This document shows, piece after piece, positions 25,188-41,829 of a stretch of 64,000 bases of DNA. The stretch spans positions 64,001-128,000 of the IMG/VR virus record IMGVR_UViG_3300031134_000004; one strand, written 5' to 3'. Within the stretch, counting starts at the first letter, position 1. Every line of letters starts with the position of its first letter. The notes beneath the pieces are model-generated. The model saw only the letters and a program-made list of their open reading frames with translations. It ran no database searches and was not told the DNA's origin. A program made the translations under genes and the position numbers. The stretch comes from a virus. Its lineage: Duplodnaviria; Caudoviricetes.

Positions 25188-25635
25188 TAGTGCAGTGCAA
25201 GGAAAACCCATGCGTGCTTTCGGGTATCGCTGGGAAAGCTGGTGGTATCCGTACTTAACCAAACAGCTACTCGAAGATGGTGATAGTTGGATGGCGCGTG
25301 AGTTGTACGTGTGTGATGACACCACAAGCTGGGAGTCGCCACACATTCAAGGCATGCGTTTGTATCTCATCCACTTTGACATCAAGAACCCTTTGGTGAT
25401 CCTTAATTCTCGCAAGTGTTACGAGTGGGAGTTCGGACACAAAGAAGTCGATGCAGTGCGTGCAAAAGGATACGACGCTATTATCTACACGCCCCATGCA
25501 AAGGTAAAGCCGTCAACGAATCGGCAAACGTTATTGCTCTACCCTGCTCAGCAAGTGCTGGAGATTGAACTACTGCAAGGGGATCACCATTGTGGTTTGC
25601 CACCGGGTGTGGACGTTTGGTCGTGGGGCGACTGA
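25177..25635 (+). CDS. hypothetical protein, possibly a divergent ART-PolyVal-like ADP-ribosyltransferase fold
   Basis: LYLIHFDIKNPL, KGYDAII and LLLYPAQQV resemble the VY.V.L...NPL, GYDGI and VVF.P.QI pattern. Confidence 0.45.
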   Translation: MWFDSAVQGKPMRAFGYRWESWWYPYLTKQLLEDGDSWMARELYVCDDTTSWESPHIQGMRLYLIHFDIKNPLVILNSRKCYEWEFGHKEVDAVRAKGYDAIIYTPHAKVKPSTNRQTLLLYPAQQVLEIELLQGDHHCGLPPGVDVWSWGD

Positions 25636-39582: not shown

Positions 39583-39696
39583 GTCGCGTAGAGGGGAGCT
39601 TCGGCTCTCCTTTATGCCGTACCTAAATTATCTTGGTTACATATCACCCTACTAGCAATACACACGTATTTAACTATTACTAGGGGTTATAAAAAC

Positions 39697-40065
39697 ATGC
39701 CACGTTTTAAAATAGAAGGAGATGGTGACTTCGGTTACGTTCTTCGTTTGAATAATTTGCTAGGTCGCAATAAGCTCGATGGCCGGCTTGACCAGATTAG
39801 CCTAGGTCCGTGCGAATCGATTGAGACACTTCGTACACTCTACGAGAATGAACTGGTTGAACCTTACGATGAAGAAGGTCCGGACTTGATTATTCATGGG
39901 GAGATGAAAACCTACACCAAGTACTTTCGTAAAGGCGGTGGTCTTGAATGGTGCTGTCCACTGAACAACCAAGCGCAATGGGAAGGCATGGATGAATCAG
40001 GTGCAGGTCTGGATGATGTCTTGCTGCGGGTGACGAACATTACGAAACGCGAGCCCTGTGAGTAA
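39697..40065 (+). CDS. hypothetical protein
   Basis: gggg SD, 122 aa, stop TAA at 40063-40065. Confidence 0.65.
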   Translation: MPRFKIEGDGDFGYVLRLNNLLGRNKLDGRLDQISLGPCESIETLRTLYENELVEPYDEEGPDLIIHGEMKTYTKYFRKGGGLEWCCPLNNQAQWEGMDESGAGLDDVLLRVTNITKREPCE

Positions 40066-41065
40066 AAATTTACATGACGACATCATTCTTTGCAAGAACA
40101 CAGCGCCATGGAACGACAATGTGTTTGAGACCTCGCTTCGTAGAAGCTATCTGAAGAGCCGTGAAAGTCGGCATGCTGGGTGTCAACGTCCAGTAAAGGT
40201 GAAAATCCTTCGAAACATAACCACACAGTGCACGGCGATGCGTCGCCCAGTTACTGGTGTCATGCAGCTCGCTTGCGCCTCGCTATTGCGAAACGGCGCG
40301 ATGGCGGCAGCCTTTGCCCGAGTCCTTCGAGTCTTGGGATGCTTTGGTGGTTGTGTCATAGCAGCGAGACTTTACAGTGGACAAAGCACCGGGAGGTGTG
40401 TCGGGACTGACTATCCTAAAAACTGTACGACTGGTTTCATCGGGCTGTCAACCCATGATCCAGTAAGTTGTTCTCCTCTCTTAAAAGTTAGGAGGTTGTT
40501 TTCATGTGGCCGCCTTTCGAAGAACTCGAATTGGCCGCCGGAGCGAAGCGCCTGAAGGTTGAGGACGCAGGTGCTTGGCTGCTCTCTTGCAGCCTTGGCT
40601 TGCACTACCAATAGTGCCTATACGCAACGCAACATAAAGCAGCACGCAGCCGCAAGGTGTTCACATTTGAGTCTTCATTCCTCAGAGAAGACACGAACGA
40701 TTTGCTAGAGGCCAGTCTTCATCGATAGAAGGCGGACGCACAAGTTCGGACTTGAGAATACCTTGTGGATGCGGTAATACACGCAACCGATTTCACACAA
40801 CTTCACTACCTTTGTTTCTTGATGCATCTACTTACTCCTCCTCCGTTGTTGGTTCGTCTTGGACTTGGATTTCTTCGTCGATTTGGGGAGTTGTGTGAAT
40901 CTATTAAAGTCCTCTACAGATGGTTAGGCGTTTGTGTGTGATGAACATCCCAACTCCCGTTGGCGTCAGCAATGTTCGCTACACATGGCCTTAATTAGTA
41001 GCAGTCTGTGGTAGGGCTCTTTTGTTCGTGCTACGAGTCTTCCTTAACGGGAAGACTCTATGCCG
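40066..41065 (+). ncRNA. candidate large structured non-coding RNA (family unassigned)
   Basis: No credible ORF. More than 15 hairpins plus long-range helices (40216-40224/40347-40355; 40373-40378/40422-40427; 40792-40804/40887-40899), GNRA loops, and a terminal hairpin plus TATGCCG. The strand is inferred. Confidence 0.55.
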
Positions 41066-41122
41066 ATGTGTTGTACCTGAGTTACGGCGGGTCTCCGTAA
41101 CACTACTATTAGGAGCATTACC

Positions 41123-41548
41123 ATGAAGTTGAAATTCGAGAAAGAAACGCAAGACGTCATCAACGCTATTGCCCAACTGCCTGATGAAGCAGGTTCACCT
41201 GCAGGCTTGGCCAAACCCAACCAGTTAATTGGTGTGTTTGACAAGGTCATTCTCGGTGACAAAGCCAATCGCAATGCGCCATCGAAACACTGGGCTAAGC
41301 TGCGGCGTCAATTGAGTTTCCTCTACGAGATCGTCAACATCGGTGCTATCGCTGGCAAGAAGGTGTCGCAAACCGGCGGGGAAGAAAGCCTTAAAGAATC
41401 GTACCGGATGATCGTGACGATCTGCAAGAAGATTGTTGCAGGCACGTCGCTTGACCATCCAATGTTTGTGCGCCTTGCACTCAGTTATGGCGTGCTGCAT
41501 TTGTCGGACCATGAGATTCAAAAGCTGATCGACGGTAACAACGTTTAA
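41123..41548 (+). CDS. hypothetical protein
   Basis: aggag SD, 141 aa. Confidence 0.75.
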   Translation: MKLKFEKETQDVINAIAQLPDEAGSPAGLAKPNQLIGVFDKVILGDKANRNAPSKHWAKLRRQLSFLYEIVNIGAIAGKKVSQTGGEESLKESYRMIVTICKKIVAGTSLDHPMFVRLALSYGVLHLSDHEIQKLIDGNNV

Positions 41549-41562
41549 CATAAGGAACTACC

Positions 41563-41829
41563 ATGTCGCGTCGCTTATTCCTTAAAGGACTGGCTGGATT
41601 GTTTGTAGCTCCAGCAATTGTCAAAGCCGAAAACATCATGAAGATTGCAGTTCCTAGGACAGAGATTATTCTGCCCGAAGAATTCAATCCACTGAACTTC
41701 GGCAACATGGTGTGGAGACCTGAATTGACGTTGGTTTTGCCGACTACGTGTAACGTCAAAGAGATCCATGTCCAACCAATGTTCAGACAAAGCATTGAAT
41801 CCTCGATGCCTATTCTGTTGACGTCGTAA
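41563..41829 (+). CDS. small protein with twin-arginine (Tat) signal-like N-terminus
   Basis: aagga SD; MSRRLFLKGLAGLFVAPAIVKA. Confidence 0.65.
   Translation: MSRRLFLKGLAGLFVAPAIVKAENIMKIAVPRTEIILPEEFNPLNFGNMVWRPELTLVLPTTCNVKEIHVQPMFRQSIESSMPILLTS

Follow-up and report, generated by a model that had tools for sequence, protein, structure and literature searches.

A gap between two genes of a phiKZ-like phage holds a noncoding RNA gene, predicted on the + strand, and this gene is a composite locus rather than one RNA of 1 kilobase (kb). The DNA analyzed here (the window, 64,000 base pairs [bp]) comprises bases 64001-128000 of a 224,654-bp virus contig in IMG/VR (IMGVR_UViG_3300031134_000004); the gap, at 40066-41122 of the window, is the largest in it, the genes elsewhere being densely packed. 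The first ~260 nucleotides (nt) of the locus are a hammerhead module, the next ~415 nt are a structured RNA that we call the cargo RNA, and the last ~290 nt are an unconserved spacer. We consider it probable that the hammerhead, which is branched at stem II, cuts the cargo RNA free from the transcript.

A Noncoding Gap in a Densely Coding Genome

The phage encodes a PhiKZ-type major capsid protein, and one large structural protein shares 49.5% identity with its counterpart in Burkholderia phage FLC9 and 37-41% with those of Ralstonia and Xanthomonas jumbo phages; the nearest cultured relatives infect Burkholderia, Ralstonia, and Xanthomonas. The gene downstream of the gap (41123-41548, 141 amino acids [aa]) has nine clusters of homologs. 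Syntenic contigs with a large gap were found in two uncultured lineages, L002 and L005 (L006 and L007 are identical to L005), and in both the hammerhead and the cargo lie at the same place as in the window.

A codon model trained on 118 long open reading frames (ORFs) of the same genome gave negative codon-usage log-odds in all six frames over 40066-41122, which bears out the preliminary description of this stretch, made from the letters alone, in its claim that the gap has no ORF with phage codon bias. That description had weighed ORF 40058-40555 as a possible gene. We rejected this 165-aa frame on its codon score (-0.25, compared with +0.24 to +0.54 in adjacent genes) and the absence of any homolog among 5.8 billion proteins. 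A 34-aa ORF that begins at 40504 behind AGGAGG was also rejected, being disrupted by frameshifts among strains and having its AGGAG within a hairpin arm. Gene callers reported no ORF in L002 or L005 that matches the small ORFs of the window; a 77-aa ORF that they called in L005 was discarded, as just its last ~28 codons resemble L002 and those are the conserved terminator region. Self-comparison of the genome by blastn and tblastx found no repeats or paralogs of the gap, and ARAGORN found no tRNA or tmRNA.

The Hammerhead Module

The hammerhead was located with a descriptor consisting of stem I, CUGANGA, a G...C element, GAAA, a stem III that opens with an A-U pair, a non-G residue, and the closing strand of stem I. 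It matches once in the 224-kb genome, both strands included, compared with 0.125 times per randomized genome (coordinates in Table 1), and the matched elements follow one another as in a type I hammerhead, in both order and spacing. The core and stem I are kept in the window, L002, and L005, and the branched domain is 54 nt long in all three. Stem III covaries, reading ACACGGACG/CGUCCGUGU in L002 and AUACGAAUCG/CGGUUCGUGU in L005, and the residue at position 17, before the predicted cut, is C in the window, A in L002, and C in L005.

A covariance model of the core and the three hairpins of the branched domain (R2) finds the same arrangement in the cultured phages RSF1 of Ralstonia, FLC9 of Burkholderia, and, weakly, SURPRISE13 of Burkholderia. 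In each of these the descriptor then gives a complete hammerhead in which stems I and III are entirely different. The core is CUGAAGA in RSF1 and SURPRISE13 and CUGAUGA in FLC9. Across the six phages, position 17 is C, A, C, U, C, and U (always non-G); the A15.1-U16.1 opening of stem III and the zero-spacing joins are kept; stem I takes the forms GCUAU/AUAGC, GGCGU/ACGCC, GCUCU/AGAGC, and GGCUU/AAGCC; and stem III has six different sequences of 8-10 bp. The hammerheads of RSF1 and FLC9 lie inside annotated gene-free gaps of 0.5-0.6 kb, and that of FLC9 begins at the stop of the upstream gene. The counterparts of window 40094-40480 are at about 194200 to 193850 of AP014927.1 (RSF1) and about 137960 to 137780 of LC667451.1 (FLC9), both on the - strand.

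The branched domain is itself supported by covariation: over five sequences, pairing holds in 94% of the cells, and two-sided changes are seen at 6 of 16 pairs, a number reached in 0 of 500 shuffles. In four of the six phages A9 is followed by G and G12 is preceded by C, with the three hairpins between them. In the RSF1-type sequences the outer pair of hairpin 1 is U-A rather than G-C, a difference that points to hairpin 1 as the actual stem II, with the remaining two hairpins inserted ahead of G12. A stem II of one or two pairs is documented in natural hammerheads (PMC3088659). The idea that the cargo has a second ribozyme at its 3' end was rejected, neither the descriptor nor Rfam giving a match there.

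The Cargo RNA

Alignment folds of the three lineages were compared with alignments shuffled within column classes. The cargo region (40366-40775) has z = -6.6 on the + strand and -3.0 on the - strand. Domain B at its 3' end (40636-40775) has a structure conservation index of 1.04, with z = -10.0 on the + strand and -6.3 on the - strand, and the M part at its 5' end (40366-40470) has z = -2.9 and -0.9, respectively; no structure shared by the three lineages was found in 40471-40635. In domain B, 97.6% of the cells pair and 11 of 41 pairs change on both sides, compared with 3.6 +/- 1.5 pairs in shuffled controls (0 of 500 reach 11) and 1-2 with slid partners. Its hairpin at 40671-40692 has five of six pairs changed around an invariant 10-nt loop, AUUCCUCAGA (40677-86). 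Folded singly, the three RNAs give the same layout, including a closed variable domain and the hairpin with AGGAG as its 3' arm, which the relatives keep with a different sequence. Two blocks, 40093-40247 and 40640-40796, share 76-89% identity with L002 and L005, compared with 65-72% for the flanking genes.

Domain B is present in a single copy in the genome, and its model (R1) found nothing in L004, L008, L009, L011, L013, L048, L049, FLC9, RP12, or LucasX. The RNA element is missing from the other lineages that carry the upstream or downstream gene families, cargo motifs are absent from the sequence downstream of the FLC9 and RSF1 hammerheads, and no similarity of the cargo to cultured phages was found. 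The cargo is limited to one uncultured clade. Cultured jumbo phages of Ralstonia and Burkholderia have the hammerhead module as well, at the head of other noncoding sequence.

The invariant loop of domain B has several potential partners. It is complementary at seven of eight positions to the hammerhead core strand UCUGAAGA (40150-40157); its CCUC could pair with GAGG in the conserved junction strand UAGAGGCC as a possible pseudoknot, or could alternatively mimic an anti-Shine-Dalgarno sequence. Covariation cannot decide among these options, because all the bases concerned are invariant.

Folding of the Kilobase as a Whole

The preliminary description had taken the region for about 1 kb of densely base-paired sequence and a candidate large ornate phage RNA. 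What stands is a conserved, structured, noncoding + strand RNA with covariation and with traces in RNA libraries; the single 1-kb RNA does not. The minimum free energy (MFE) of the entire kilobase, relative to shuffles, has z = -1.67 on the + strand and -2.59 on the - strand, so that folding beyond shuffled controls does not hold at this scale. Dense pairing holds for sub-regions: 40358-40775 has an MFE z of -3.56, beside the alignment fold of domain B. The MFE z of 40774-41034 is -2.27.

Those of the listed helices that we re-counted (most of the list, the gcc-GCAA-ggt, gtcttc, and caagt stems excepted) pair as claimed, and the 9-bp hairpin at the end exists (41035-43/41050-58). Compensatory changes in the relatives were found for cataaccac/gtggttgtg, tacagt/actgta, gcacc/ggtgt, and the first gtcttc/gaagac stem, and RNAalifold on the three lineages gives 180 pairs, of which 46 are compensatory; covariation among homologs is present. 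Other helices fared less well. The 13-bp helix (40792-804/40887-899) lies within the spacer that cannot be aligned to the relatives, the stems in 40471-40635 fall in the variable region without shared structure, and caagt-tcgg-acttg is disrupted in both relatives, the conserved alternative being CGAAC/GUUCG. The earlier preference for a + strand RNA, drawn from G-U pairs, agrees with the stronger alignment folds on that strand. The suggested kinship with GOLLD or ROOL was not supported: no Rfam model matched at the gathering score or with E up to 10, including those of GOLLD, ROOL, other catalogued large RNAs, group I and II introns, tmRNA, and RNase P. The closing hairpin plus TATGCCG, which had been counted as part of the RNA, consists instead of a terminator-like hairpin and, after it, a TATG late-promoter motif of the phiKZ type.

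Traces in RNA Libraries

Sequence words from the gap were found in 20 sequencing runs from 16 studies, six of the runs being recorded as RNA. We mapped contigs from eight RNA or RNA-like libraries belonging to at least seven studies (phyllosphere, soil, wastewater, freshwater sediment, an insect sample, and one unnamed organism). The matching contigs are confined to 40103-40353 and 40368-40767, all within the gap. Two are upstream (40103-40350 and 40103-40353; X5, X7); seven downstream contigs start at 40368-40417 and end at 40647-40767, and an eighth (X18) covers 40540-40705. The downstream contigs are 154-394 nt long, at 95-100% identity. In these eight libraries no contig lies on 39600-40100 or 40778-41015, none spans 40353-40368, and none joins the RNA to either flanking gene. 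The predicted cut falls inside the break between the two groups, and the outermost contig ends agree with the promoter-like box on one side and with the foot of domain B on the other. Strains differ by indels of 1-2 nt at 40479, 40486, 40512, 40533, and 40621, which rule out the small ORF at 40504.

Distribution of the Phage and the Locus

Near-identical DNA or RNA of the phage is present in runs from phyllosphere, plant, biofilm, soil, root, air, plastic, lake, and wastewater samples (~17 studies); the distribution of the phage or its host is unusually wide.

Among GenBank phages, neither the 2-kb region (blastn) nor either flanking protein (tblastn) has a match. Nothing in IMG/VR was found with the three flanking proteins or with the invariant strings, 33 string matches there being judged to be chance. 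Scans of JGI metagenomes and of species genomes also found nothing; these collections seem not to hold this clade, since L002 is a JGI contig that carries the first pattern.

Boundaries and Neighboring Genes

The features of the locus are collected in Table 1.

Table 1. Features of the RNA locus and its edges (window coordinates)
Feature	Position	Strand	Evidence or remark
Near-palindromic box GTAAAAATTTAC	40062-40073	+	Overlaps the stop codon of the upstream gene (39697-40065)
5' leader, conserved CAAGAAYAC...UGGAACGACA, distal stem I extension	40094-40145	+	Alignments
Putative hammerhead ribozyme, type I	40146-40362	+	Descriptor scan; cleavage predicted between 40357 and 40358
Stem I, 5' strand GCUAU	40146-40150	+	Descriptor; partner 40358-40362
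Core C3-A9, CUGAAGA	40151-40157	+	Invariant in window, L002, and L005
Branched stem II domain, 54 nt: G10.1, three hairpins, C before GAAA	40158-40211	+	Alignment
Three hairpins: GCCG-UGAAAGU-CGGC, GCUGGGUG-UCAA-CGUCCAGU, AAGG-UGAAAAU-CCUU	within 40158-40211	+	
Core G12-A13-A14 (GAA)	40212-40214	+	Descriptor
Stem III, 5' strand ACAUAACCAC	40215-40224	+	Pairs with GUGGUUGUGU
Loop III insert, variable, 122 nt	40225-40346	+	
Stem III, 3' strand GUGGUUGUGU	40347-40356	+	First pair A15.1-U16.1 is A40215-U40356
Position 17 (H17), C	40357	+	Predicted cut follows
Stem I, 3' strand AUAGC	40358-40362	+	Descriptor
Cargo RNA, ~415 nt	40358 to ~40773	+	Fold z, alignment fold, RNA-library contigs; ends approximate
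M domain: three-way junction, then hairpin	closed by 40373-78/40422-27; hairpin ~40430-64	+	
Conserved GUAAGUUG; further hairpin	hairpin ~40473-94	+	Within cargo
Variable domain V	~40495-40642	+	Within cargo
Domain B: 20-bp closing helix, hairpin 40671-40692, helix CGAAC/GUUCG, conserved junction strands, e.g., AUUUGCUAGAGGCCAGUC	40645-40773	+	
Unconserved spacer, including the 13-bp helix	40774-41034	+	Unalignable with L002 or L005
Terminator-like hairpin GAGUCUUCC-UUAACG-GGAAGACUC	41035-41058	+	Compensatory changes
TATG late-promoter motif	41059-41062	+	TTTATGCCG conserved in L002 and L005
Hairpin GUUACGG-CGGGUCU-CCGUAAC in the 5' untranslated region of the 141-aa gene	41081-41101	+	Belongs to the neighboring gene, not the RNA

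The box at the upstream edge contains AAATTTAC (40066-73), which matches the phiKZ middle-promoter motif AAanTTAC, and is kept in L002 and L005 as GTAAATTTTTAC. In phiKZ this motif, AAanTTACc, lies ~24 nt upstream of the transcription start (PMC4666361), and we infer from the match that the box may be a promoter with a start at about 40094-40103. The pattern AAnnTTAC[ACT] is three-fold enriched between genes of this genome, with 21 intergenic occurrences and 7 expected. The box GTAAAAATTTAC has two copies in the 224-kb genome, the other (G000 25199-25210) also being intergenic.

At the downstream edge, the terminator-like hairpin reads GGCCUUCCC...GGGAAGGCU in L002 and L005, with compensatory changes; the bases after it are UAUG in the window and UUUAUG in the relatives. 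A simple terminator scan missed it because there is no long U run. The phiKZ late-promoter motif is TATG, with G as position +1 (PMC4666361), and the TATG here is probably the start of the mRNA of the next gene.

The hairpin with the CGGGUCU loop and a preceding CCUGA occur before every homolog of the 141-aa gene, even in unrelated neighborhoods (L004, L008, L009, L011, and L013). L013 has two copies of the hairpin (1202-1230 and 1803-1867), with the compensatory stem GCCACGG/CCGUGGC. By its conservation this hairpin looks like a cis-regulatory RNA or a protein-binding site.

Several neighboring reading frames deserve mention. In L004 the place of the RNA locus, immediately before the homolog of the 141-aa gene, is taken by a called 165-aa gene (556-1053), which has no match to the spurious 165-aa ORF of the window and is unrelated to it. 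An 88-aa ORF of the window (41563-41829) weakly matches the C terminus of the major capsid protein of PhiKZ (profile positions 573-613 of Pfam PF25620), and L005 likewise has a capsid-end-like ORF beside the RNA locus; the genuine capsid gene lies at G000 131381-133255. In RSF1, ORF203 and ORF204 (AP014927.1 193143-193667, ~64 and 80 aa) lie just downstream of the hammerhead and a terminator-like hairpin and may be an over-annotated noncoding region.

A Proposed Mechanism and Its Alternatives

We propose that transcription would start behind the middle-promoter-like box and that the first ~260 nt of the transcript would fold as a type I hammerhead, for which the sequence, the covariation, and the family are observed and the catalysis is predicted. 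Self-cleavage after C40357 would leave a ribozyme piece with a 2',3'-cyclic phosphate and a downstream RNA with a 5'-hydroxyl. The RNA thus released would be a chain of domains (M, a hairpin, the variable domain, and B) that ends at the foot of the 20-bp helix of B. Its 5'-hydroxyl end and terminal helix would shield it from end-dependent nucleases, which would account for its recovery from environmental RNA libraries. As to function, our guess is that the cargo would be made in mid to late infection and that its fold would serve to bind a protein or a ligand. A bolder proposal, which we offer tentatively and think more doubtful than not, is that the cargo is the founding member of a new class of fold-acting phage RNAs in nucleus-forming jumbo phages, for example, a defense decoy or sponge or a protein scaffold, and that the hammerhead is a maturation module reused by jumbo-phage lineages for different structured RNAs.

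Several observations weigh against release of a cargo RNA by a hammerhead. The hammerhead region folds no better than shuffles (MFE z -0.49), and the Rfam hammerhead models give no hit at the gathering score, nor with E up to 10 over 39900-41300; the large inserts may explain this miss. Position 10.1 is U in RSF1 and SURPRISE13, seemingly paired inside hairpin 1, in which case everything between hairpin 1 and G12 would be an insert beside the predicted catalytic core. Only three lineages carry the cargo. The RNA evidence consists of assembled contigs without strand, true ends, or reliable depth, from runs chosen for holding this stretch, and a control with the capsid gene found that gene in 20 runs from 17 studies, six of them RNA. 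As the control is so similar, the phage is simply widespread, and our claim is limited to a representation of the RNA no poorer than that of the capsid message, not an exceptional abundance.

The likeness to a hammerhead could be purely formal, with host or phage RNases doing any cutting and the three-hairpin block employed otherwise, e.g., in protein binding. The Rfam miss, the branching at the position of stem II, and the variation of 10.1 between G and U can all be read in this way, and contig breaks can be products of assembly. We nevertheless judge it unlikely: six phages preserve the core, A15.1-U16.1, the non-G17, and the spacer-free joins despite a complete change of stems I and III, the descriptor has a single match in the genome, and the break between RNA contigs brackets the predicted site in all the runs mapped. 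Less probable still is that the region is a long untranslated region (UTR), either the 3' UTR of the gene at 39697-40065 or the leader of the gene at 41123-41548, in which a hammerhead just splits messages and the cargo is without a role of its own. Gene-flanking hammerheads are known from phage transcripts, including prophage operons (PMC3088659), and the one in FLC9 starts at the stop of the upstream gene. A mere UTR does not, however, fit with M and B domains that are more conserved than the flanking genes and rich in compensatory changes, with a next gene that is set off from the RNA by a terminator-like hairpin and a separate TATG motif and that keeps its own 5' UTR in genomes without the RNA, or with RNA-library contigs that join the RNA to neither gene.

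The remaining explanations do without a functional RNA. It is very improbable that the locus is a DNA-level element (a replication origin, a packaging signal, or a recombination site) or the remnant of a decayed gene or mobile element. Points in favor are the palindromic form of the promoter-like box, a - strand that likewise folds below its shuffles, and a nearby copied fragment of the capsid gene; against this, the G-U pairs and the alignment folds of domain B and the M part favor the + strand, the genome holds no similar sequence, there is neither a coding signal nor a protein homolog, and the stretch is present in RNA libraries from which its flanks are absent. That the gap encodes small proteins, such as the 34-aa ORF or ORF 40058-40555, we regard as the least credible explanation. 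A Shine-Dalgarno-like AGGAGG does stand 8 nt before the ATG, and the 165-aa frame is open, but the codon scores are negative and homologs absent, the strain indels of 1-2 nt fall inside the small ORF, the AGGAG is a hairpin arm that relatives preserve with other sequence, and gene callers give no matching ORF in L002 or L005. We therefore retain cleavage by a hammerhead with a branched stem II, and release of a structured RNA, as the probable explanation of the gap.

Comparison with Known RNAs and Implications

Discontinuous or extended hammerheads, such as that in the 3' UTR of mammalian Clec2 genes, assemble their core from segments more than 100 nt apart, as the ribozyme of the window would; they keep a simple stem II, whereas here the position of stem II is branched. 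With the type I hammerheads of bacteria and phages, some of which are documented to process phage transcripts (PMC3088659), the element shares the core CUGANGA...GAAA, A15.1-U16.1, the non-G17, covarying stems I and III, an intergenic position in a phage transcript, and predicted RNA cleavage. It differs in having three hairpins (54-91 nt) rather than one short helix between A9 and G12, and, in five of six examples, a stem III insert of 113-173 nt, and no Rfam model detects it.

Like GOLLD and ROOL, the locus is a phage-borne, multi-domain noncoding RNA of several hundred nucleotides with strong covariation. Unlike them, it matches no Rfam model, occurs in other hosts and phage types, is smaller (the ~415-nt cargo), and is predicted to be released by a ribozyme. 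We know of no large functional RNA described in phiKZ-like phages. A 2026 review mentions just unspecified noncoding RNAs (PMC13282480). The small RNAs of phiKZ and 201phi2-1, derived from 5' UTRs or intergenic (PMC11512511), resemble the present RNA in being noncoding RNAs of phiKZ-like phages with a promoter, a nearby terminator, and positional conservation, but they are shorter than 250 nt, have no ribozyme, and precede tail genes.

A three-hairpin domain beside the predicted catalytic core would extend the range of structures known for the hammerhead fold, and the presence of the same ribozyme variant in the cultivable plant-pathogen phages RSF1, FLC9, and SURPRISE13 makes it directly testable. 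The combination of a ribozyme head with a structured cargo may flag further unannotated RNA genes in the apparently empty gaps of jumbo-phage genomes, and the cargo RNA may bear on how RNA is handled outside the protective nucleus of these phages.

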